Origin: a virus
Lineage: Duplodnaviria > Heunggongvirae > Uroviricota > Caudoviricetes
Virus record (IMG/VR): IMGVR_UViG_2579778866_000003
Strand: one strand, 5' to 3'
DNA: 37,677 nt
The first letter of the stretch is position 1. Every line of letters starts with the position of its first letter. Positions 1-37,390 of this stretch are shown one piece after another. Below the pieces are notes generated by a model. It was not told where the DNA came from and did no database searches. It saw only the letters and a list, made by a program, of their open reading frames with translations. Both the position numbers and the translations under genes were made by a program.

Positions 1-1053
1 TTACGGGGTAATGCCAACCGCTGCCGCCACTTTGTCGCCACTTGGCAGCGTTGCCAGAGGATTGAAACGGAGCGCCGTTTCTAGATGATCCGGTGCCAGA
101 TGTGCGTAACGCATAGTCATTTTTATATCGTGGTGTCCGAGAATTTTTTGTAAGGCCAGAATGTTTCCACCCGACATCATGAAGTGCGCCGCAAACGTAT
201 GGCGCAGAACGTGTGTGAGTTGACCGCGAGGGAGCACGATAGACGTTTTTTCCATCACGGATAAAAATTGAAAATAGCAGTCTGTGAAGAAATTGAACCC
301 ATCAAGCGCCATGATCTCTTCGTAAAGCTCTTTACTGATAGGGATGCTTCTGTTTTTCTTCCCCTTCGTTCTGACAAAGGTAATTCGGTATTTGGTCACC
401 TGTGAGCGGGTAAGATTTACGGCTTCACGCCAGCGTGCGCCTGTGCTTAAGCATATCTTAACTACCAGTGCCAGAATTGGGTCCTGACGTTTGCAATCAG
501 CCAGCAATTCAACAATCTGCTCATGGGTAAGCCATGCCATCTCTTTTTCTGCGATGGTGAATTTTCGCATGTTCTCCAGTGGGTTCGGATACGACCATTC
601 GCCCAGACGGGATAGTTCGCTAAAAACACTACTTAGATAGCTTTGCTCCAGGTTAATGGTGACCGGGCTTGCTCCTTTCTTCCATTTCTCGCTGAAGTAG
701 ATCTCGCCTGTCAGGCGTTTATCTCGATAGTGGGCAAACATTTTAGAGGTGAGATCGGTTGCAAGAGGATTGCCCAGAGCGTCAACCATCAACAGCAATT
801 TGTCATAGACATGCTGCCCAGCTGTCAGAGATTTACCATGTAGTTTGAACCATAGCTCAACCACGTCTTTCAGTGTTCGACGATCCACTGATTCACCCAG
901 CCAGGGCTTTGCTTCGGTTTCTTCCATCGTGTGGCGCTCAAAAGCCAGTGCTTCGCCTTTGGTAGCGAATTGTTTACGCACACGACGCCCACTTCGTCCG
1001 GCGGGGTAACATTCGCAAAGCCATTTCCCTGTTGTTAGTTTTCGTACTGCCAT
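1..1053 (-). CDS. int: Tyrosine integrase (P2/186 Int family)
   Basis: 350 aa; C-terminal catalytic region with HVLRHTF (HxxR) and MRYAHL (catalytic Tyr) motifs; located at the prophage end next to the repressor region. Confidence 0.9.
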   Translation of the reverse strand: MAVRKLTTGKWLCECYPAGRSGRRVRKQFATKGEALAFERHTMEETEAKPWLGESVDRRTLKDVVELWFKLHGKSLTAGQHVYDKLLLMVDALGNPLATDLTSKMFAHYRDKRLTGEIYFSEKWKKGASPVTINLEQSYLSSVFSELSRLGEWSYPNPLENMRKFTIAEKEMAWLTHEQIVELLADCKRQDPILALVVKICLSTGARWREAVNLTRSQVTKYRITFVRTKGKKNRSIPISKELYEEIMALDGFNFFTDCYFQFLSVMEKTSIVLPRGQLTHVLRHTFAAHFMMSGGNILALQKILGHHDIKMTMRYAHLAPDHLETALRFNPLATLPSGDKVAAAVGITP

Positions 1054-2832: not shown

Positions 2833-3429
2833 TTAATTCGAGACTATTGTACTTCTTATACAAGCAACCACTTCAATATCAGAAAATGCACATTCAAAGC
2901 TATTCTCTGCTGTTGTAATTTTAATCATTCCTTTAGGAAGCCTTGTGATTTTTCGAATGGAATAGGTTCCGTCGATATTGATTAACCAGTTTCCATCAAG
3001 TACTTCAGAAAATTTTTGATCACAAATGTATGTGACGAGTCCATCCTGAACAACAATTGGTGATGAAAGGTTTGCAGGAAGAAATGATGAATCGAAGACA
3101 TATGAACCGTCTTCAATCATTTTGCCTGCGGCAAGGCGAAACTTAACAAGCTCTTCTGTAGCTGCTGTCAGCGAGCTTTGCTTAAGGCCTTGTCCGGTAG
3201 TTAACCATTTGAGGGAGGTTCCTGTTTCAAGAGCACATTGGATTATCCAGTCAGCAGGAAATGTATCCCGCAAATACCTGTTCGCTAGTGTGCTTTTTGA
3301 TACTTCCAAGTGATCAGCTAAAGCCTGTCGTGTCGTAAAGCCATAGGCTTCGACTAATCGCTCAATCGCAGCCTTACCACCTTTATTGGGATTTATTTTG
3401 ATCTCACTTGGGTACTTTGATGTTGGCAT
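2833..3429 (-). CDS. cI: CI-type immunity repressor (186 CI-like)
   Basis: 198 aa; N-terminal segment LADHLEVSKSTLANRYLRDTFPADWIIQCALETGTSLKWLTTGQG resembles the phage CI repressor HTH family; divergent from the apl/cII lytic operon. Confidence 0.7.
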   Translation of the reverse strand: MPTSKYPSEIKINPNKGGKAAIERLVEAYGFTTRQALADHLEVSKSTLANRYLRDTFPADWIIQCALETGTSLKWLTTGQGLKQSSLTAATEELVKFRLAAGKMIEDGSYVFDSSFLPANLSSPIVVQDGLVTYICDQKFSEVLDGNWLINIDGTYSIRKITRLPKGMIKITTAENSFECAFSDIEVVACIRSTIVSN

Positions 3430-5352: not shown

Positions 5353-5579
5353 TGGCTGATGCAATGGATCTCGTACAGCAGCGCGTTGAAGAAGAACGCC
5401 AGCGCCATATCCGTGCAGCCCGTGCCAAATCACCGGGCGTGTCACGCGTACTTTGCATTGAATGTGAAGCGCCAATTCCGCCAGCACGACGCCGCGCCAT
5501 TCCGGGAGTGCAGCTTTGCATTACCTGTCAGGAAATCGCAGAACTGAAAGGCAAACATTACAACGGAGGTGCTGTATGA
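5352..5579 (+). CDS. TraR/DksA-family C4 zinc-finger protein
   Basis: 75 aa with CIECEAPIP ... CITCQ (CxxC-N17-CxxC) pattern; AGGAG Shine-Dalgarno. Confidence 0.7.
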   Translation: MADAMDLVQQRVEEERQRHIRAARAKSPGVSRVLCIECEAPIPPARRRAIPGVQLCITCQEIAELKGKHYNGGAV

Positions 5580-6433
5580 GCACTATCCTGAAATGGGCGG
5601 GAAATAAAACCGCCATTATGCCAGAACTGAAAAAATACCTTCCTGCTGGCCCGCGACTGGTTGAACCTTTCGCGGGTTCCTGTGCTGTGATGATGGAAAC
5701 GGATTATCCCAGCTATCTGGTTGCGGATATTAATCCTGATTTAATCAACCTCTATAAAAAGGTTGCCGCTGATTGTGAATCGTTTATATCTCGCGCCAGA
5801 GTTTTATTTGAGATCGCAAACAGGGAGGTGGCTTATTACAACATAAGGCAGGAGTTTAACTGCTCAACTGAAATTACTGATTTCATGAAAGCGGTATATT
5901 TCCTGTATCTCAATCGTCACGGTTACCGTGGTTTATGTCGCTATAACAAGAGCGGGCATTTCAACATTCCCTACGGTAATTATAAAAATCCGTATTTCCC
6001 TGAAAAAGAACTTCGCACATTTGCAGAAAAAGCCCAGCGAGCAACGTTTATCTGCGCCAGCTTTGATGAAACGCTGGCGATGTTGAAGGCGGGAGATGTG
6101 GTGTATTGCGATCCGCCATATGACGGTACGTTTTCCGGCTATCACACTGATGGTTTCACTGAAGATGACCAGTATCACCTGGCATCCATTCTTGAACATC
6201 GGTCATCAGAAGGACATCCGGTCATTGTTTCTAACAGTGACACATCCCTGATCCGTTCGCTGTATCGCAATTTTACTCACCACTATATCAAGGTTAAACG
6301 CAGCATCGGTGTGGCAACTGGCGAGGGTAAATCAGCAACAGAAATCATTGCTGTTTCCGGGCCGCGCTGCTGGATGGGATTTGATTATTCGCGTGGCGTG
6401 GATAGTTCTGCCGTGTACGGAGTACGTGCATGA
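5576..6433 (+). CDS. dam: DNA adenine methyltransferase (Dam-like)
   Basis: [12 protein letters not shown]-terminus, FAGSCAV motif I and VYCDPPY (DPPY) motif; GGAGGT Shine-Dalgarno; start overlaps the TraR-like stop. Confidence 0.85.
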
Positions 6434-8844
6434 GTCATGCCGATATGAACAACTGCTGCGGCTTTAACGAGGCTGCCGCAGCATTCTCATGGAACAGCCC
6501 GAAAAAGGCCATTAACCCTTATCTGGACCCGGCGGAAGTTGCGCCGGTTTCTACGCTTTCAAACCTGATCACTCTGTACGCTGCCGATAACGAGCAGGAA
6601 CAGTTGCGCCGCGAGGCACTGAGTGATCAGGTCTGGGAGCGTTATTTCTTTAATGAATCACGTGATCCTGTCCAGCGCGAAATGGAGCAGGATAAGCTCA
6701 TTAGCCGGGCAAAGCTGGCGCATGAGCAGCAGCGTTTTAATTCAGACATGGTCATTCTGGCGGACGTCAACGCCCTGCCTTCCCATATCAGCAAGCCGCT
6801 GATGCAACGTATTGAATACTTCAGCAGCCTGGGCAGGCCAAAGGCTTATTCCCGCTATTTACGTGAGACGATTAAGCCATGTCTGGAACGACTGGAGCAT
6901 GTACGCGACAGTCAGCTATCTGCATCTTTTCGCTTTATGGCAAGCCATGAAGGGCTGGACGGCCTGCTGATCCTGCCTGAAATGAGTCAGGATCAGGTGA
7001 AACGCCTGTCCACCCTGGTAGCTGCGCATATGAGTATGTGCCTTGATGCAGCTTGTGGTGATTTGTATGCCACCGATGACGTTAAGCCAGAAGAAATCCG
7101 CAAGACATGGGAAAAGGTGGCAGCGGAAACCCTGCGTCTGGATGTCATCCCACCTGCGTTTGAGCAACTCCGTCGGAAAAGAAACCGCCGTAAACCCGTG
7201 CCCTATGAACTCATTCCGGGTTCGCTGGCGCGTATGTTGTGCGCCGACTGGTGGTATCGGAAATTATGGAAGATGCGTTGCGAATGGCGGGAAGAGCAGT
7301 TGCGCGCTGTTTGCCTGGTCAGCAAAAAAGCATCTCCTTATGTCAGCTATGAAGCCGTGATGCATAAACGTGAGCAGCGCCGTAAGTCGCTGGAGTTTTT
7401 CCGTTCTCATGAACTGGTGAACGAAGACGGCGACACGCTGGACATGGAGGATGTGGTAAACGCCAGCAGCAGCAACCCTGCGCATCGCCGCAATGAGATG
7501 ATGGCCTGTGTTAAAGGTCTGGAGCTTATTGCGGAAATGCGCGGTGACTGCGCCGTTTTCTACACTATCACCTGTCCGTCGCGTTTCCATTCCACGCTAA
7601 ATAACGGCAGACCAAACCCGACCTGGACAAACGCGACGGTAAGACAAAGCAGCGATTATCTGGTCGGCATGTTTGCTGCATTTCGTAAGGCGATGCACAA
7701 AGCCGGGTTGCGCTGGTATGGCGTGCGGGTGGCTGAGCCGCATCATGATGGCACAGTTCACTGGCACCTGTTGTGTTTCATGCGCAAAAAAGACCGCCGT
7801 GCCATCACTGCATTACTGCGTAAGTTTGCCATCCGTGAAGACCGCGAGGAGCTGGGCAATAACACTGGGCCGCGCTTTAAGTCTGAGTTGATTAACCCGC
7901 GCAAAGGAACGCCGACAAGCTACATCGCGAAATATATCAGTAAGAACATTGACGGTCGTGGTCTGGCTGGCGAGATCAGCAAGGAAACGGGTAAATCTCT
8001 GCGTGATAACGCTGAATACGTGAATGCCTGGGCGTCTCTGCATCGTGTTCAGCAATTCCGCTTCTTTGGTATTCCGGGGCGTCAGGCTTACCGTGAACTT
8101 CGCTTGCTGGCTGGTCAGGCGGCAAGGCAACAGGGTGACAAAAAAGCAGGTGCGCCGGTACTGGATAACCCGCGTCTTGATGCCATTCTGGCTGCTGCTG
8201 ATGCTGGTTGTTTTGCCACCTACATCATGAAGCAGGGCGGCGTACTGGTTCCCCGTAAATATCACCTCATCAGAACCGCTTATGAAATCAACGAAGAGCC
8301 GACCGCCTATGGCGATCACGGCATTCGTATTTATGGCATCTGGTCACCCATTGCAGAGGGCAAGATCTGCACCCATGCAGTGAAGTGGAAAATGGTTCGT
8401 AAAGCCGTTGACGTTCAGGAGGCGGCAGCCGACCAGGGCGCTTGCGCCCCTTGGACTCGTGGCAATAACTGTCCCCTTGCTGAAAATTTGAACCAACAGG
8501 AGAAAGATAAATCAGCTGATGGGGACATCAGAACGGACATTACCCGCATGGATGACAAGGAGTTGCACGATTACCTGCACAGTATGAGCAAAAAAGAGCG
8601 CCGGGAACTGGCTGCAAGGTTACGCCTGGTTAAACCGAAACGGCGTAAAGACTACAAACAGCGAATTACAGACCATCAGCGACTGCAGCTCGTCTATGAG
8701 CTGAAGTCCAGAGGATTTGATGGTAGCGAGAAAGAGGTCGATTTACTCCTTCGCGGCGGCAGTATTCCGTCAGGAGCAGGCCTGCGTATCTTCTATCGGA
8801 ACCAGCGTTTGCAGGAAGATGATAAGTGGCGGAACCTGTATTAA
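6430..8844 (+). CDS. A: Replication initiation endonuclease (P2 gpA-like)
   Basis: 804-aa protein at the P2 A position; start overlaps the dam stop. Confidence 0.8.
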
Positions 8845-9196: not shown

Positions 9197-9430
9197 ATGC
9201 GCATTGAAATAATGATCGATAAAGAGCAGAAGATTAGCCAGTCTACCCTGGACGCCCTTGAATCCGAGCTTTACCGCAATCTGCGCCCCCTGTATCCCAA
9301 AACGGTAATTCGTATCCGCAAAGGTAGCTCTAACGGTGTGGAACTTACCGGATTGCAACTGGACGAAGAAAGAAAACAAGTGATGAAAATTATGCAGAAG
9401 GTGTGGGAAGACGACAGCTGGCTGCATTAA
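9197..9430 (+). CDS. DinI-family protein (Tum/DinI-like)
   Basis: 77 aa, MRIEIMIDKEQKISQSTLDALESELYRNLRPLYP ... KVWEDDSWL matches the DinI family pattern; GAGGTG Shine-Dalgarno. Confidence 0.75.
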   Translation: MRIEIMIDKEQKISQSTLDALESELYRNLRPLYPKTVIRIRKGSSNGVELTGLQLDEERKQVMKIMQKVWEDDSWLH

Positions 9431-10313: not shown

Positions 10314-11276
10314 ATGCCAGTATTAGACTTCAAAGAAATACCAGAGGCTCATAAAGCAACAGGGCTGCAAGACACATTTGAACTTTTTTCTCGCGACTTC
10401 TTAGCTTTTCTGGGATATAAAATTATATCTGACCCAGATAGAGGGGCTGACGGTGGGGTTGATATTATAGCCGAAGAAAAAAGGACTGGTGTCGGCGGGG
10501 AAACAATTATCCGTTGGTTGGTAAGCTGTAAGCATAAAGCTCATAGTGGAAATTCAGTTAATCCAGGAGATGATGCAAATATTACTGATCGAGTAATAGC
10601 GAATAACTGCCAAGGATTTATCGGGTTCTATTCAACTCTTGCTAGTGCAGGTCTGTCTGGAATACTTGACGGGTTGAAAGGACGAATTGAATTTCAGGTT
10701 TTCGATAAAGAGAAAATAGAGAGGGAACTTTTACACTCTTCCAGAGGATTGGAAATTGCCGAAAGGTACTTCCCAAAGTCGTTATCTGAGTGGAAAACAG
10801 AAAACCCCAAACCCGCAAGAATATTTTCCGATGAACCTAGCTTAAAATGCAAAGTTTGCAAGAAAGAGCTTCTGTCTCAAGACGACAAGGGAATTATCAC
10901 TATATGGCAAAGAATCCGCACCGACTACGAAAAAGAACCAGAGTATAATGAACATATTTTTTGGACGTGTCGAGGCAACTGCGACCAAGCACTCCGGCAG
11001 TATGTTAGAAAACAAACAAACAATGGCCTTATTGATGGCTGGGAAGATATAGCTGATGTAATGATGCCAACTGTGTTTATAAAATGGGTCATGACAATAA
11101 TGAATGAGTTAAGATCTGGGACCCTATATTCAGATGAGGCATTTGACGAACTCAAGACATTTTTGATCAATATTTACCCATTTGCATGTCGTCATCTCAC
11201 CGAAAAAGAAAAAGAAAGGGTTAAATCATTAATGATGATACCTTCGTATCTTGGCGGCATGAACTATGAAGGTTAA
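10314..11276 (+). CDS. Mrr-cat-like (PD-(D/E)xK) nuclease domain fused to a Cys-containing C-terminal domain of unknown function
   Basis: 320 aa; N-terminus FLAFLGYKIISDPDRGADGGVDIIAEEK ... RWLVSCKHK resembles the Mrr restriction-endonuclease catalytic domain; C-terminal half has CKVCKK and CRGNCD; AT-rich. Confidence 0.65.
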   Translation: MPVLDFKEIPEAHKATGLQDTFELFSRDFLAFLGYKIISDPDRGADGGVDIIAEEKRTGVGGETIIRWLVSCKHKAHSGNSVNPGDDANITDRVIANNCQGFIGFYSTLASAGLSGILDGLKGRIEFQVFDKEKIERELLHSSRGLEIAERYFPKSLSEWKTENPKPARIFSDEPSLKCKVCKKELLSQDDKGIITIWQRIRTDYEKEPEYNEHIFWTCRGNCDQALRQYVRKQTNNGLIDGWEDIADVMMPTVFIKWVMTIMNELRSGTLYSDEAFDELKTFLINIYPFACRHLTEKEKERVKSLMMIPSYLGGMNYEG

Positions 11277-11352
11277 GAGAGGGGGCGTTAGCCATCTTCG
11301 AGAGTATTCAGTAAGGATTTGAAGAGAGAATATATAAATAGACCATTTATAC

Positions 11353-11397
11353 CTGAACAGAAGTCATATTGAGCTAGACGTTTCTGTTCAGTTTTTT
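11353..11397 (+). terminator. Rho-independent terminator downstream of the Mrr-like gene
   Basis: Perfect 10-bp inverted repeat CTGAACAGAA (11353-11362) / TTCTGTTCAG (11382-11391) followed by TTTTTT. Confidence 0.5.
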
Positions 11398-11767
11398 AGT
11401 GTCTTCATTATCATATATCGCTCGAAAAGTCTCCCCGAAAACCAAGAGCATTTCCTTAATTGAAGTTGCTGTTGTCACCGCTGCGCATCCGTAACAGCTT
11501 ACATGCTGCTTCGCTCTGTTTCAGTGCCAAAAAGCAAGGAGTTAATGTCCGCTTTTCACTCACAGCGGACTTTCATCTTTGTAAACCCGTATGATTCGCT
11601 TTTCAGCGGTCATTCAGATACGGATTTACGCTTCCCTTGGCTGTGCATGACTATGCTGCATGAAATCGCATGATCGATTGAGGATCGTTTTTGCAGAGAC
11701 CTGCTAGAACTGGCGAGCTTTTACTCATGTCATGCAGGTGCATGAAAACCACTGCATAAAGCGGGCA

Positions 11768-11793
11768 GGCGTGGCGGGGATACGATTGCGCGC
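11768..11793 (+). other. Candidate cos site (cohesive-end region)
   Basis: GGCGTGGCGGGGATACGAT followed by TGCGCGC; the first 13 nt and the following TGCGCGC match my recollection of the P2/186 19-nt cohesive end and its flank; located before Q as in P2. Confidence 0.4.
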
Positions 11794-11867
11794 AGAAGAT
11801 TATTATTGGTACACTGTCGGTGACTCTCTACGCAGATCTTACACATTAATTTCTAATGGGGCATGCT

Positions 11868-12668
11868 ATGATCTTTCTAAGTCATAATCACCGTGACAAA
11901 AGGTTTGTAAGTGTTATAGCGGAAAAACTAGCAGATGTTTATGGGCGTGATAACGTATTCTACGATTCTTGGTCTATCCAACCCGGAGAGGGTATTATTG
12001 ACAAGATGAATTTAGGAATGGAGAATGTATCGTTCTTTTTCTTTTTTGTCACAGAAAATAGTTTGGCAAGTAACATGGTAAAAATGGAATGGCAAAATGC
12101 TTTAATTAAGGCATCGTCCGGGAAGTGTAAATTTATACCAATACGTTGCCAGAATATATCCTTGCCTGCTCTGCTTACTCAAACGCTATATATTGATCTT
12201 TATTCGTATGGGATCGATGTGGCAATAAGACAAATTATAGATGTCATTAATCAACAAAATACGTATATTCCTAATCCTGAGAAGTATTCAAACCTCTCCT
12301 ATGATATTAAGGATGGTGATGGGGGTAAGATAGTGAAATTATCAGCAATGGATTTTTTAGAACCAATTGCTGATTTTATGATGATTATGGATAATACAAT
12401 TAAGCATGATGATGTTGTTGTTATGGTCAATGGAGAAAGCACATTCACTCAGGGGTTTATTGAAAATGCATCTTTAGAAAATGGTATGAAAGTAAGTGGT
12501 GCCACTGTTGGCCTAAATCGGGGGTTAACACCAACGATGCCAATGTATGTTTCTCTTAGGTTAAAGGATGGTTCACCTTTGAATATATTTGCGGTGCTAC
12601 ATCGAGTAAGTACCGAGCGTTATGCTCCTATACCACATAAAGCCGATGATGCCTTTAGAGTAAAATAA
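11868..12668 (+). CDS. TIR-domain protein with C-terminal domain of unknown function
   Basis: N-terminus IFLSHNHRDKRFVSVIAEKL ... VFYDSWSIQPGEGIIDKM ... FFFFFVTENSLASNMVKMEWQNAL fits the bacterial TIR pattern; alternative ATG at 11856; AT-rich; sits between cos and Q. Confidence 0.7.
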   Translation: MIFLSHNHRDKRFVSVIAEKLADVYGRDNVFYDSWSIQPGEGIIDKMNLGMENVSFFFFFVTENSLASNMVKMEWQNALIKASSGKCKFIPIRCQNISLPALLTQTLYIDLYSYGIDVAIRQIIDVINQQNTYIPNPEKYSNLSYDIKDGDGGKIVKLSAMDFLEPIADFMMIMDNTIKHDDVVVMVNGESTFTQGFIENASLENGMKVSGATVGLNRGLTPTMPMYVSLRLKDGSPLNIFAVLHRVSTERYAPIPHKADDAFRVK

Positions 12669-12677
12669 AAAGCAATA

Positions 12678-12703
12678 TGGTGGCTATATAATTAAGGCCA
12701 CCA
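12678..12703. terminator. Bidirectional hairpin between the convergent TIR gene and Q
   Basis: TGGTGGC (12678-12684) / GCCACCA (12697-12703) stem with T-rich sequence on the minus strand downstream of the Q stop. Confidence 0.45.
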
Positions 12704-12712
12704 ATTTATATC

Positions 12713-13741
12713 TCATAAACAATAGGATGAAAATGCAATAACTTTCTCACCCAGCCAATGGTTTAACTCCTCCATGCGTTTCTGTAATGGCAAAAGTTCA
12801 TTGCGCACAAACACATTTGCGGCCTTCTCCACATCCCCAAACCCTCCAACATTATTAGGCATAATCCCCATCATTTGCGGCGGCACGCGGTGCGCAGCCA
12901 TCATGTCATCGCGGCTCACGTTCTTGATATTCAAAAACTCATCCTTCGCCGCCACCTCTGACAACGGGATAATCTGAAGCCCGTCCTTTTTGCCGTTAGG
13001 CGAGTACATAAACAGGTTGCGGAAGTTACCCGGACCTTTGGCACTTTTCATTGCATTGCGGAGGTTGTTCACGTCCTCCTGGTTCTGCGCAGCATCGGTC
13101 ATGTACATGATGAAGCCTGCATGACTACCGTTAATGTAATACTTGCGGCGGAACAGCGTGGCGGACTCATTGAGCAGGGCGGACGGAATGGCAGAAAGAT
13201 AGCCGGGCAGGCCGTAGATCTCCTGGTTAATGTCCGGTTCCATCAGATGAAAAATGCTGCCTTTCGTGAACTGATACGGCTGGGTTGTCATACCGTATTG
13301 CACAAACCAGTAGGTATCCAGGTCTAACCCGCGTCGGGTGTATTTTGCCAGAGCAGGCTCAAGGGCGATAACTTCACCGAAGCGGTTCGTGCGTTTCTCC
13401 AGGTAGGCGTTACCAAATACCAGATAGTCCTGCACAAAACGTGAAAAAGCCTGCTGGCTGAGCAGCGGGTGAGGGATGTAGGTACTGGTCAGAATGTTGC
13501 ATTTCACCGCAATTGGTGAACTGTGATGCACGGCGGCGCGGAAGGTGCGCGCCAGTCCGTCAAAGCTTACTGGCGGCTCATACCAGCGATCTGTCTGTAC
13601 GCATTCCACATAGTCCAGCAGTTCTCGGCGGTCCAGAACAGGAACGGGATCGCCGAAGCTGAATGCTTCGGCTGTAGTTTGACTTTTAAGCTGGATCTGT
13701 TTCGTCGCCGCAGCGCGGTTCTTCTTACTCTTTCCCATCAA
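12713..13741 (-). CDS. Q: Portal protein (P2 gpQ-like)
   Basis: 342 aa; first gene after cos on the minus strand; overlaps the P stop. Confidence 0.85.
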   Translation of the reverse strand: MMGKSKKNRAAATKQIQLKSQTTAEAFSFGDPVPVLDRRELLDYVECVQTDRWYEPPVSFDGLARTFRAAVHHSSPIAVKCNILTSTYIPHPLLSQQAFSRFVQDYLVFGNAYLEKRTNRFGEVIALEPALAKYTRRGLDLDTYWFVQYGMTTQPYQFTKGSIFHLMEPDINQEIYGLPGYLSAIPSALLNESATLFRRKYYINGSHAGFIMYMTDAAQNQEDVNNLRNAMKSAKGPGNFRNLFMYSPNGKKDGLQIIPLSEVAAKDEFLNIKNVSRDDMMAAHRVPPQMMGIMPNNVGGFGDVEKAANVFVRNELLPLQKRMEELNHWLGEKVIAFSSYCL

Positions 13742-17558: not shown

Positions 17559-18209
17559 ATGAGCCTGAGTCCCGCACGGCAGCATCGCCTGCGCGTTCAG
17601 GCTGAACAGGCCGCCCGCGAGGGCGGCAGCGTTCGCCACGCGTCGGGCTATGACCTGATGCTGCTGCAACTGGCGGAAGACCGCCGCCGTCTCAAGGGCG
17701 TTCAGTCCACGGTCAAAAAAGCGGAAATCAAGGTGGAGCTGCTGCCGAAGTACGCTGCCTGGGCGGAGGGTGTCCTGGCTGCCGGAGGCGCTCAACAGGA
17801 TGACGTGCTGATGTACGTGATGCTGTGGCGCATTGATGCCGGAGATTATGCCGGGGCGCTGGAGATCGGGCGTCATGCCCTGCGTCATGGCTGGGTGATG
17901 CCGCTGGGTAACCGCAACGTGCAGACCGTGCTGGCAGAGGAAATGGCAGACGCCGCGCAGAGCGCAATGCTTGCCGCCATCGGCTTTGATGCCGATCTGT
18001 TGCTGCAGACACTGGAGCTGACAGACGGTCTGGATATGCCGGACCAGTCACGGGCGCGTCTGCATAAAGCGATTGGCGCTGTCCTGAGTGAAAGCAATCC
18101 GGCTTCCGCCCTTAATCATCTCAACCATGCGTTACAGCTCGATCCCCGCTGTGGCGTGAAAAAAGACAAACAGCAGCTGGAGCGCAGACTGCGCAATGAC
18201 AGCCGCTGA
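17559..18209 (+). CDS. M: Terminase small/endonuclease subunit (P2 gpM-like)
   Basis: 216 aa following N. Confidence 0.75.
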   Translation: MSLSPARQHRLRVQAEQAAREGGSVRHASGYDLMLLQLAEDRRRLKGVQSTVKKAEIKVELLPKYAAWAEGVLAAGGAQQDDVLMYVMLWRIDAGDYAGALEIGRHALRHGWVMPLGNRNVQTVLAEEMADAAQSAMLAAIGFDADLLLQTLELTDGLDMPDQSRARLHKAIGAVLSESNPASALNHLNHALQLDPRCGVKKDKQQLERRLRNDSR

Positions 18210-32934: not shown

Positions 32935-33416
32935 TGATGGTGCTGGGATTGTACGTGTTTATGCTGCGCACCGTTCCGTATCAGGAACTGCAGTATCAAC
33001 GCAGTTGGCGACATGCGGCAAACAGCCGGGTAAACCGTCGTCCGTCCACGCAGTTTCTGGGACCGGACAACGACATGCTGACGCTTTCTGGTGTTCTTAT
33101 GCCGGAGATAACGGGCGGCAGGCTGTCGTTGCTGGCTCTGGAGCAGATGGCAGAACAGGGAAAAGCATGGCCCCTGATTGAAGGCAGCGGCACGATTTAC
33201 GGCATGTATGTGATTGAGGGACTGAATCTGACTAAAACGGAGTTTTTCCGCGACGGTATGCCGCGGCGGATTGAGTTCACCCTGTCGCTCAAACGGGTGG
33301 ATGAATCCCTGTCCGATATGTTCGGTGATCTCAGTACGCAACTGAATAATCTGCAGGACACGGCAACATCTGCCTTAAGTGATATCAGTAAAACGGTGGG
33401 AGGGCTGCTGTCGTGA
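32931..33416 (+). CDS. U: Tail protein (P2 gpU-like)
   Basis: 161 aa; overlapping start/stop with T and D. Confidence 0.8.
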   Translation: MMMVLGLYVFMLRTVPYQELQYQRSWRHAANSRVNRRPSTQFLGPDNDMLTLSGVLMPEITGGRLSLLALEQMAEQGKAWPLIEGSGTIYGMYVIEGLNLTKTEFFRDGMPRRIEFTLSLKRVDESLSDMFGDLSTQLNNLQDTATSALSDISKTVGGLLS

Positions 33417-34513
33417 ATTTCAGCTCTGAACTGCTTAACAAAGGCAACAAAACTCCCGCATTCAGCATCAGTATTGAGGGCAGGGATATCACCACTGTGC
33501 TGGATAACCGCCTGATGAGGCTGACGCTGACGGATAACCGGGGCTTTGAAGCGGACCAGCTTGATCTGGAGCTGGACGACGCCGATGGAAAAATAGCGCT
33601 GCCGCGCCGTGGTGCGGTCATTACGCTGGCGCTGGGCTGGAAGGGGCAGCCGCTTTTCCCGAAAGGGGCATTCACGGTGGACGAGATTGAACACACTGGC
33701 GCACCGGACCGCCTGACTATCCGGGCGCGAAGTGCTGATTTTCGTGAAACGCTGAATACCCGCCGTGAAAAGTCGTGGCACAAGACCACTGTCGGGGAAG
33801 TGGTCAAGGAAATAGCCGCGCGTCACAAGCTGAAGATGGCACTGGGTAATGACCTGTCGGATAAGCCCGTGGAACATATAGACCAGACTAATGAGAGTGA
33901 CGGCAGTTTTCTGATGCGGCTGGCGCGCCAGTACGGTGCTATCGCGTCAGTGAAAAATGGCAATCTGTTATTCATCCGACAGGGACAGGGTAAAAGTGCC
34001 AGCGGTAAACCACTGCCGGTGATCACTATCACACGTAAGGACGGCGACAGTCACCGCTTTACCCTGGCAGATCGCGGAGCTTACACGGGCGTAATTGCCA
34101 GCTGGTTGCATACTCGCGAACCCTCGAAGAAAGAAAGCACCACGGTGAAGCGTAAGCGCAGGACTAAGAAGCAGAAGAAAGAGCCGGAAGCGAAGCAGGG
34201 CGATTACCTGGTGGGTACGGATGAAAACGTGCTGGTACTTAATCGCACTTATGCCAACCGGAGCAACGCCGAACGAGCGGCGAAAATGCAGTGGGAACGC
34301 CTGCAACGCGGCGTTGCGTCATTCTCGCTACAACTGGCGGAAGGTCGGGCAGATCTCTACACGGAAATGCCAGTGAAAGTCAGTGGCTTTAAACAGCCGA
34401 TAGATGATGCGGAATGGACCATTACGACTCTGACGCATACCGTCAGCCCGGATAACGGTTTTACGACCAGTCTGGAGCTTGAAGTGAGGATTGATGATTT
34501 CGAAATGGAATGA
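33413..34513 (+). CDS. D: Tail protein / late control protein D (P2 gpD-like)
   Basis: 366 aa; last tail gene before ogr. Confidence 0.8.
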   Translation: MNFSSELLNKGNKTPAFSISIEGRDITTVLDNRLMRLTLTDNRGFEADQLDLELDDADGKIALPRRGAVITLALGWKGQPLFPKGAFTVDEIEHTGAPDRLTIRARSADFRETLNTRREKSWHKTTVGEVVKEIAARHKLKMALGNDLSDKPVEHIDQTNESDGSFLMRLARQYGAIASVKNGNLLFIRQGQGKSASGKPLPVITITRKDGDSHRFTLADRGAYTGVIASWLHTREPSKKESTTVKRKRRTKKQKKEPEAKQGDYLVGTDENVLVLNRTYANRSNAERAAKMQWERLQRGVASFSLQLAEGRADLYTEMPVKVSGFKQPIDDAEWTITTLTHTVSPDNGFTTSLELEVRIDDFEME

Positions 34514-35057: not shown

Positions 35058-36743
35058 TTATCCTAATCCTGGCCATACCATGACGATGATTGTCCCTGCC
35101 AGCGTCAGCAGGACGTTGGCGATTGCATAGGTGCCCGCATAGCCCAGCGCCGGGATGTTACTGCGAGCTGTATCACTGATGATCTCCATTGCCGGCGCGC
35201 AGGTGCGTGCGCCCATCATTGCGCCGAACAACAGTGCGCGGTTCATTCGCAATACATAAGCACCGAACAAGAAACAGATAACCACTGGCACAAGACTGAC
35301 AATCAATCCGGCAATCAACATCTGACCGCCAATCGCGCCCAGGCCGTTATTAATACCGCTACCGGCGCTCAGACCAACGCCTGCCATAAACACCATTAAG
35401 CCGAACTCTTTCACCATGCTTAATGCACCCTGCGGAATGTAACCGAAGGTCGGGTGGTTAGCGCGCATAAAGCCCAGCATAATTCCGGCGAATAACAACC
35501 CGGCAGCGTTCCCCATGCCGAAACTGAATGTGCTGAACTGGAAGGTGATCATCCCGATCATCAGCCCAATAACAAAGAAGGCGCAGAATGCCAGCAAGTC
35601 AGTGACCTGGCTGTGAATCGAGATAAAGCCGATGCGATCGGCGATGGTTTTTACGCGACGGGCATCGCCGCTGACTTGTAAAACGTCACCTTTGTTAAGC
35701 ACGACGTTGTCATCTATCGGCATCTCAATCTGGCTACGAATGACGCGGTTAAGGAAGCAACCGTGATCGGTCAACTTCAGTTGTGCGAGACGTTTGCCCA
35801 CGGCGTTATGGTTTTTAACGACCACTTCTTCAGTGACGATACGCATGTCGAGAAGGTCACGATCGAAAACTTCTTTGCCGTTACGGAAGCTGGGATCGAG
35901 TCGTGCGTGGGCGTCGGGATAGCCTACCAACGCTATTTCATCGCCCATTTGTAGCACAGCATCACCGTCTGGATTCGCCAGAATCCCGTTACGTCGAATA
36001 CGTTCAATGTAGCAGCCAGTTTGTCGATAAATACCCAGTTCACGCAGATTTTTGCCGTCGGTCCAGGCCACCAGCTCCGGGCCGACGCGGTAGGCGCGGA
36101 TCACCGGTAAATAAACCTTACGGTTGGCATCAGTGTCCAGGCCACGTTCGCGGGCGATTTGCTGGGCGCTGGTCTGTAAGTCCTGATGCTGCAATTTCGG
36201 CAAGTAACGCGCACCAACAATCAAACTCACCAGACCGATTAAATAGGTTAAGGCATACCCGAGGCTCAGATTATCCAGTGCCAGTGAGAGCTGCCTGCTT
36301 TCCATGCCGGAATGACGCAGTGTATCGCCAGCACCGACCAGAACCGGTGTCGACGTCATAGAGCCAGCTAACATACCGGCCGTCAGGCCAATATCCCAGC
36401 CAAACAGCTTACCTAACCCTAAGGCGATCACCAGCGCACTGCCAACCATCACCAGTGCTAACATTAGGTAATTTTTCCCATCGCGAAAAAAAATGGAAAA
36501 AAAGTTCGGTCCGGCTTCGACCCCGACGCAGAAAATAAACAGCATAAAGCCAAGATTAAGCGCGTCGGTGTTAATGCTGAAATGTTGTTGGCCTAATAAC
36601 AGCGATACGACTAAAACGCCAATGGAATTACCCAGTTGGATCGAACCAAGTCGTAATTTCCCGAGACATAGCCCAAGCGCGAGGACCACAAATAATAACA
36701 GAATGTAATTCCCATTTAACAATTCGGCGACGTTTATATTCAC
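35058..36743 (-). CDS. ybjL: Putative transport protein YbjL (host)
   Basis: 561-aa polytopic membrane protein matching E. coli YbjL in size and in the ybjL-ybjM-grxA neighbourhood. Confidence 0.9.
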
Positions 36744-37012: not shown

Positions 37013-37390
37013 GTGAAACATAAACAACGTTGGGCGGGGGCAATCTGCTGTTTTGTCCTCTTCATTGTGGTGTGTCTTTTTCTGGCGACGCACATGAAAG
37101 GCGCTTTTCGGGCTGCCGGGCATCCTGAAATCGGTTTGCTATTTTTCATTCTTCCTGGTGCAGTTGCCAGCTTCTTTTCACATCGTAGAGAAGTCCTGAA
37201 ACCTCTGTTTGGCGCAATGCTGGCGGCACCCTGTTCGATGCTCATTATGCGGCTGTTTTTTTCACCGACGCGCTCATTCTGGCAAGAGTTGGCATGGTTA
37301 TTAAGTGCGGTGTTCTGGTGTGCGCTGGGGGCATTGTGTTTCTTATTTATCAGTAGTTTGTTTAAACCACAGCACAGAAAAAATCAATAA
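37013..37390 (+). CDS. ybjM: Inner membrane protein YbjM (host)
   Basis: 125-aa hydrophobic protein between ybjL and grxA. Confidence 0.8.
   Translation: MKHKQRWAGAICCFVLFIVVCLFLATHMKGAFRAAGHPEIGLLFFILPGAVASFFSHRREVLKPLFGAMLAAPCSMLIMRLFFSPTRSFWQELAWLLSAVFWCALGALCFLFISSLFKPQHRKNQ

Follow-up and report, generated by a model that had tools for sequence, protein, structure and literature searches.

The stretch of DNA analysed here, referred to throughout as the window, comprises the 37,677 nucleotides of IMG/VR record IMGVR_UViG_2579778866_000003. It carries a nearly complete, and apparently complete, P2-like prophage of the 186/Fels-2 type (Peduoviridae), the features of which are collected in Table 1. 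The prophage has full-length open reading frames, with strong matches to their families, for Q, P, O, N, M, D, A, int and CI, and a cognate pair of terminase subunits, gpM (small) and gpP (large), is encoded on the same element. The presence of a DinI-family gene in the position of tum/tumB suggests that the prophage is SOS-inducible like 186, and unlike the non-inducible P2. The DUF4041/T5orf172 gene probably represents another accessory or defence cargo slot, in addition to the two that are described below.

The region of interest is the gap between an Mrr-like gene and a TIR-domain gene, with the portal gene Q lying beyond the latter. The sequence-only reading described it as a non-coding stretch of about 0.5 kb. 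Non-coding it is, but its extent was underestimated: the gap opens at 11277, directly after the stop codon of the 320-aa gene, and closes where the TIR gene starts, so that it runs to 11855 or 11867 and measures about 0.58 kb. RefSeq annotates no gene within the gap in near-identical E. coli prophages, and an Rfam search of 11200-11950 at permissive thresholds gave no match. Small open reading frames at 11460-11594, 11503-11673 and 11732-11887 were rejected as genes, as they cross similarity breakpoints or the conserved block and are unannotated in the RefSeq relatives. The hairpin at 11353-11397 looks like a terminator behind the Mrr-like cargo gene, lying outside the conserved block; a simple terminator scan missed it because its loop exceeds 8 nt. 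Besides the two hairpins listed in Table 1, a further one is found in the gap at 11580-11630. A scan for σ70 promoters revealed no convincing plus-strand promoter for the TIR gene, the number of sites being no higher than in shuffled sequence.

Comparison with other prophages resolves the gap into three parts. In around 20 E. coli prophages that share the Mrr-like gene, the match ends at 11575-11578. Where only the TIR side is shared, the match begins at 11540 or 11642, and where only the Mrr-like side is shared it ends at 11794. These breakpoints divide the gap into the tail of the first cargo module (11277 to about 11578, and variable to 11641), a central block that we refer to as cos for the reasons set out below (11642-11793), and the leader of the second cargo module (11794-11867). 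A BLAST search of 50,697 phage records with the entire gap as query gave the same picture from a wider sample. Only 11642-11793 of the interval 11277-11870 is conserved (the match extending to 11796), at 83-90% in 85-91 Peduoviridae records and with E-values down to 1e-50. Breakpoints among the E. coli prophages fall at 11642 and 11794, the edges of this block of about 152 bp, and none falls inside it.

Table 1. Positions of genes and sequence elements in the window, in order along the plus strand
Feature	Position	Strand	Basis or remark
Integrase	1-1053		Left part of window; integrase region cut by the window's left end
DUF4041 + T5orf172/MUG113 gene, 558 aa	1136-2812	-	Between integrase and CI repressor
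186-type CI repressor	2833-3429
D12 Dam methylase	5516-6433
gpA	6430-8844
DinI/Tum-like gene	9197-9430	+	Position of 186 tum and PSP3 tumB
ASCH gene			Left part; listed after DinI/Tum-like gene
Mrr-like cargo gene, 320 aa	10314-11276	+	Pfam Mrr_cat 4.7e-6; RefSeq 'restriction endonuclease'
Hairpin CTGAACAGAA / TTCTGTTCAG, 10-bp stem, 19-nt loop, then TTTTTT	11353-11397	+	Fold -17.1 kcal/mol, z = -3.1
Hairpin GTCCGCT / AGCGGAC, T-rich tail	11547-11578	+	Fold; end of upstream cargo module
Complete conserved cos block, about 152 bp	11642-11793	+	BLAST, breakpoints, column profile
Distal array, three direct repeats	11644-11673	+	TGCATGA 11644-11650, TGCATGA 11657-11663, CGCATGA 11667-11673; spaced 13 and 10 bp
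GATC (Dam) pair	11672-11675 and 11683-11686	.	11 bp apart, directly after third distal repeat
Degraded mid-cos palindrome CTGCTAGAACTGGCGAG	11701-11717	.	Family consensus CGCCAG-nn-CTGGCG
Proximal inverted pair TCATGCA / TGCATGA, then AAAACC	11730-11750	.	Conservation scores 7-9
Left flank half-site GCGGGCA	11761-11767	+	Nearly invariant columns; adjoins predicted top-strand nick
Predicted 19-nt 5' cohesive end GGCGTGGCGGGGATACGAT	11768-11786	+	Alignment to P2, 186 and P4 ends
Right flank half-site TGCGCGC	11787-11793	+	Invariant columns; final conserved bases of cos
cos-to-Q cargo module	11794-12712	+	TIR gene + hairpin 12678-12703
TIR-domain gene, 266 aa	11868-12668 (RefSeq); alternative ATG 11856	+	Pfam TIR_2 1.2e-22
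Portal gene, P2 Q homologue	12713-13741	-	Pfam Phage_portal; RefSeq annotation
Large terminase, P2 P homologue, N-terminal helix-turn-helix	13738-15504	-	Pfam Terminase_5 + Terminase_6N + Terminase_6C (PF06056 + PF03237 + PF17289)
Small terminase, P2 M homologue	17559-18209	+	Pfam Phage_term_smal PF05944 8.5e-40
O, N, M, then tail genes up to gpD	gpD 33413-34513	+ (O, N, M)	O, N, M follow P
Host gene ybjL	35058-36743	-	Beyond gpD; prophage ends shortly after gpD
Host gene ybjM	37013-37390		Beyond gpD

The predicted cut site and its closest relatives

The annotated ends of P2, 186 and P4 were joined end to end for comparison with the window. All three junctions take the form TGCAT(T)AAAACC-N10-AAAG(C/T)GGGC(A/G), then a 19-mer, then (T/C)GCGCGC, and the window has the same elements in the same register. 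A 19-mer resembling the P2/186 cohesive end and followed by TGCGCGC had been reported at 11768-11793 from the sequence alone; sequence and positions are exact, and the cos call is supported by an alignment that keeps the register of the cohesive ends annotated in P2 (cosL 1-19 and cosR), 186 (cos 1-19) and P4. The similarity takes in the flanks, AAGCGGGC(A/G) on the left and (T/C)GCGCGC on the right. In the window, the two flanks are imperfectly symmetric: GCGGGCA on the left stands against GCGCGCA, the reverse complement of TGCGCGC on the right.

The predicted overhang is identical to that of 186 at 16 of 19 positions and to those of P2 and P4 at 14 each. Its first 13 bases are of the form GGCG(A/T)GGCGGGGA common to all three, with six further nucleotides completing the 19. 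The three positions at which it departs from 186, and the five at which it departs from P2, all lie in columns that vary within the family. Over the 55 bp from -29 to +26 relative to the cut, identity is 43/55 to P2, 46/55 to 186 and 42/55 to P4. A conserved core of 55 bp is attributed to Ziermann and Calendar (1990) by later papers that cite it (PMC5694545, PMC9594776, PMC2231350), and we equate our interval with theirs on the strength of its equal length.

A wider family was assembled by scanning IMG/VR with the pattern GGCGNGGCGGGGA-N7-GCGCGC, which returned 120 loci; after exclusion of one spurious locus (L121) and addition of reference phages, the set held 121 cos regions, 118 of them distinct. 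Twelve variants of the 19-mer occur in this set. That of the window is present in five of the 121 (the window counted), and a form ending in ATACGAG in 36. The window departs from no column of the family that is at least 85% conserved. Compared with 119 members of the family, it has a median identity of 0.85 in the core, which falls to 0.30, the random level, from +27 on. This abrupt loss implies that the 7-bp flank is all that cos needs on the portal side, and that genes can therefore adjoin it directly on the Q side.

The closest lineage is that of the Felsduovirus phages Fels-2, SopEPhi, RE2010 and SEN8, which match the window at 51-52 of the 55 core positions (Fels-2 52, SopEPhi 51) and at 18 of the 19 overhang positions. 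The record of Salmonella phage SEN8 (NC_047753) begins with GGCGTGGCGGGGATACGAG, annotated 'putative cos site', and its last base is the homologue of window position 11767. SopEPhi, Fels-2 and SEN8 have the same gene order as the window (gpA, cos, Q, P), and the lineage shares with it GCATGA repeats, a GATC pair and cargo genes between cos and Q. The differences lie in the last base of the overhang and the base that follows it, which are T and T in the window but G and C in the Felsduovirus sequences, and in both cargos.

Repeats, Dam sites and a palindrome within the block

Conservation within the 152 bp is confined to islands. In a MAFFT profile of 119 sequences, three of these (11643-11650, 11656-11663 and 11666-11673) coincide with the distal repeats. 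They are followed by a weaker one around the palindrome at 11701-11717, one at 11730-11750 that corresponds to the proximal pair and one at 11757-11793 made up of the flanks and the cohesive end, and the spacers between the islands are variable. The TGCATGA arm at 11739 is also the start of the 55-bp core, and the third distal repeat, CGCATGA, deviates from the TGCATGA of the other two.

Five copies of GCATGA or its complement had been listed upstream of the cut site. The four plus-strand copies stand as given, at 11645, 11658, 11668 and 11740, but the inverted copy, TCATGC, lies at 11730-11735 and not at 11731-11736. The near-palindrome reported alongside them is present too, and is in fact a perfect 7-nt inverted repeat, TCATGCA (11730-11736) and TGCATGA (11739-11745), separated by 2 nt. 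Counts of TGCAT/ATGCA in the window by itself show nothing unusual, and the case for the repeats consequently rests on comparison with relatives. In the 121 cos regions TGCAT occurs 3.8 times per sequence, nearly always at -130 to -100 (three copies) and at -30 (one copy); it is found at -30 in 117 of the 121, with TGCA at -40 in 99, and is absent from -80 to -50 and from -10 to +30. About half of the family has GCATGA itself at both the distal and the proximal sites, this being the variant of the Fels-2-like lineage. Given that it is TGCAT that is locked in position across the family, the conserved unit is TGCAT, of which GCATGA is the local form.

The same array is found in 11 P4-like satellites, recognizable by their psu/sid/delta homologues and otherwise unrelated to the phages. 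In all of this, the TGCAT array is a phylogenetic footprint, read from aligned sequences, of a protein-binding array that belongs to cos and not to the neighbouring genes. The proposal that the repeats are recognition elements for terminase gains support from their fixed positions in the 121 cos regions, satellites included, and we infer that terminase is what they would bind. The most likely reader, by default, would be the small subunit gpM, the alternative being the N-terminal helix-turn-helix of gpP. Replacement of the short P4 signal by a longer cos-flanking one has been reported to raise P2/P4 cosmid transduction more than 10,000-fold (PMC9594776), a gain in keeping with a requirement for more than the 55-bp core.

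Set against P2, 186 and P4, the window thus shares a proximal ATGCA-nn-TGCAT-AAAACC element, a distal triple TGCAT array, a location beside the Q-P packaging genes and a terminase of the gpM/gpP type. The distal spacing is 13 and 10 bp in the window, 186 and P4, and 12 and 10 bp in P2. Where the window differs is in its repeat unit, which is GCATGA as opposed to GCATT or GCATGC, and in the GATC pair inside its block.

That pair recurs as GATC-N7-GATC in 40 members of the set of 121, always at -96/-85 although its spacer takes at least 13 different forms, and is confined to the Fels-2-like lineage that carries a Dam gene. Its association with the dam gene (13/6/1/25) is confounded by shared ancestry and does not count as independent evidence. 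Cleavage of pac in phage P1 is regulated by Dam methylation. By analogy, the GATC pair could make packaging methylation-sensitive in a manner comparable to P1 pac, which is a lead and not a finding. That terminase recognition or cleavage in this lineage depends on adenine methylation of the pair strikes us as unlikely.

Two further features of the block were noted. The closest relatives, 186 and the P4-like satellites all have an intact mid-cos palindrome; it is absent in P2, and in the window it carries three transitions relative to the closest relatives. In addition, the window is the same as a lineage with the Mrr-like cargo (L005) up to 11785, and identical to a lineage with the TIR cargo (L141) from 11755 on. 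The limits of identity place a joint between two phage arms inside cos, within a 31-bp interval (11755-11785) that spans the cut site. A crossover in the most conserved part of the core and the annealing of cohesive ends would fit this joint equally well.

Cargo genes on both sides of the probable cos site

As the earlier reading had it on condition of the cos call, the TIR gene is placed between cos and Q. It appears to form a single-gene module with a hairpin at its end (-13.8 kcal/mol, z = -3.7) that is shared with the end of Q. Residues 2-113 of the protein match TIR_2, the C-terminal half of about 150 aa matches no family, and the PADLOC matches of the protein are weak (TIR-NLR 6e-8, PDC-S66 1e-7, ThsB 2e-3). 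In the Mrr-like protein, only residues 20-82 match an Mrr-type domain, and the other 240 or so residues have no assignment. From these domain matches, both are predicted to be defence-type genes.

The TIR module is found in 9 of 5426 complete E. coli genomes, and together with the Mrr-like gene in just one of them. Three different cargos are found upstream of the TIR module, and other cargos downstream of the Mrr-like gene; the two cargo slots flanking cos reassort independently. The notion that the Mrr-like and TIR genes are one two-gene system split by cos was rejected on account of this independent assortment and the single co-occurrence. In the sole genome with the same pair, NZ_CP148423, the Mrr-like gene is annotated at only 279 bp and is probably disrupted. 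A separate observation concerns a TIR-carrying relative, L142 (NZ_CP010237), in which the terminase gene (6442-7125) is truncated and fused to a remnant beside the tape-measure gene. This prophage is defective, with a deletion that reaches into the tail genes, and its cos and TIR module are intact.

The length of the interval between cos and Q varies widely in the family. Of 89 loci that have cos together with a portal homologue, 40 have an interval of 160-240 bp, 7 one of 250-600 bp and 42 one of more than 600 bp. The interval is 927 bp in the window, where it is filled by a cargo gene of 0.9 kb, as against about 170 bp in P2 and 186. SopEPhi, Fels-2, SEN8 and E. coli MB06022 have other genes in this slot. 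Gene content is thus variable between the gpA-side genes and the portal, immediately adjoining cos, with breakpoints at 11575-11578, 11642 and 11794. The gpA-cos-gpQ region is an established hotspot for accessory and anti-phage genes in P2-like phages (Rousset et al. 2022, PMC9122126; PMC13586616), and a slot between cos and the portal gene was noted by Dodd and Egan (1996) and Nakayama (1999), according to the account of their work in PMC5694545. The window conforms to this hotspot in carrying accessory genes of defence type, for an Mrr-like nuclease and a TIR protein, beside cos, and differs from it only in the rarity of the pairing.

Alternative readings, packaging and uses of the cos map

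Three other explanations of the locus deserve consideration. The least probable is that the resemblance to cos and the cluster of repeats are both coincidental. GCATGA shows no enrichment over the window as a whole (29 copies, 33 expected), and a form of the pattern scan that is one position too short, with six unspecified positions before GCGCGC, yields 11 loci that are nearly all GC-rich spurious matches. Yet five or more copies within 101 bp arose in only one of 2000 dinucleotide-preserving shuffles of the window, the block as a whole recurs in the Peduoviridae records at the E-values given above, and it sits in the correct position, between the gpA region and Q/P. Chance is refuted by the BLAST conservation, the family survey of TGCAT and the shuffles, and is excluded. 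It is also highly improbable that the repeats are not packaging signals at all but operators or promoter elements, whether of the Mrr-like gene, of the TIR gene or of a leftward promoter of the old type. The old-tin transcript of P2 starts at 33424-33426 and, by our own reading of the sequence, its promoter should lie near or over the first distal repeat; moreover, as the TIR gene has no clear σ70 promoter, it might be transcribed from across cos. Against this, the distance of the repeats from the cut is constant among loci with entirely different neighbours on both sides, and also in P4-like satellites, where psu is the upstream gene. In the window, the upstream gene is oriented towards cos and would not call for a leftward promoter, and prophages cease to match one another at the edges of the block and not within it.

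The remaining explanation accepts descent from a cos site but takes the present one for an inactive relic in a defective prophage, its repeats inherited without current function. The three transitions in the mid-cos palindrome would be in keeping with decay, many P2-like prophages of E. coli are defective, and the truncated terminase and tail-gene deletion of the TIR-carrying relative provide an example close at hand. We nevertheless think this quite unlikely, although less so than a regulatory role: the window matches every column of the family that is conserved at 85% or more, the nine genes listed at the outset, from Q to CI, are full length with strong family matches, and the palindrome is also lacking in P2, which packages normally. 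We conclude that 11642-11793 is very probably the cos site of a 186/Fels-2-like prophage of the Peduoviridae. It lies, as expected for the family, between gpA-side accessory genes and the divergent Q-P and O-N-M-L genes for packaging and head.

The way in which such a site would operate can be outlined from this comparison. The excised and replicated circular genome would be recognized at cos by the gpM and gpP terminase, probably through the TGCAT(G/T)A elements, of which three are direct repeats at -124 to -95 and two form the inverted pair at -38 to -23. The large subunit would then make nicks 19 bp apart, between 11767 and 11768 on the top strand and between 11786 and 11787 on the bottom strand, within the imperfectly symmetric flanks GCGGGCA ... 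TGCGCGC. The product would be linear virion DNA with GGCGTGGCGGGGATACGAT as its 5' cohesive ends. Homology, register, position in the genome, the cognate enzymes and the conservation of each sub-element across the family form the basis of this model; cleavage, the protein that binds the repeats and the direction of packaging are what we infer from it.

In phage lambda, cos is organized as cosQ-cosN-cosB, with repeated R sites that are bound by the small terminase gpNu1, and the overhang is 12 nt long. The cos of the window may be compared with it by functional analogy only, in that both would combine a partly two-fold symmetric nicking site with a one-sided array of short repeats thought to be read by terminase. 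The comparison implies no sequence relationship between the two, and the overhang predicted here is 19 nt. The small terminase of the window is of the gpM type (PF05944) and not the gpNu1 type and, in contrast to lambda, the right end of the genome would form on the side of cos that holds the repeats. The substrates that P2-type phages package are monomeric circles (PMC2231350).

A packaging site of this kind has been described before, and the sequence is another variant of a well-known element. Its value for annotation is that it assigns the prophage a packaging site and predicted virion ends. For the biology of these phages, an unlikely reading, with which the location of the joint between arms would agree, is that the two defence-cargo slots reassort through arms of different phages joining at cos, by end annealing or by crossover in the core. 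For the family more broadly, conservation of the P2/P4-type cos spans about 150 bp, more than the 55-bp core, with none beyond +26 on the portal side. A map of cos at this level of detail could aid the design of P2/P4 cosmids and the prediction of which satellites can be packaged by a given helper.
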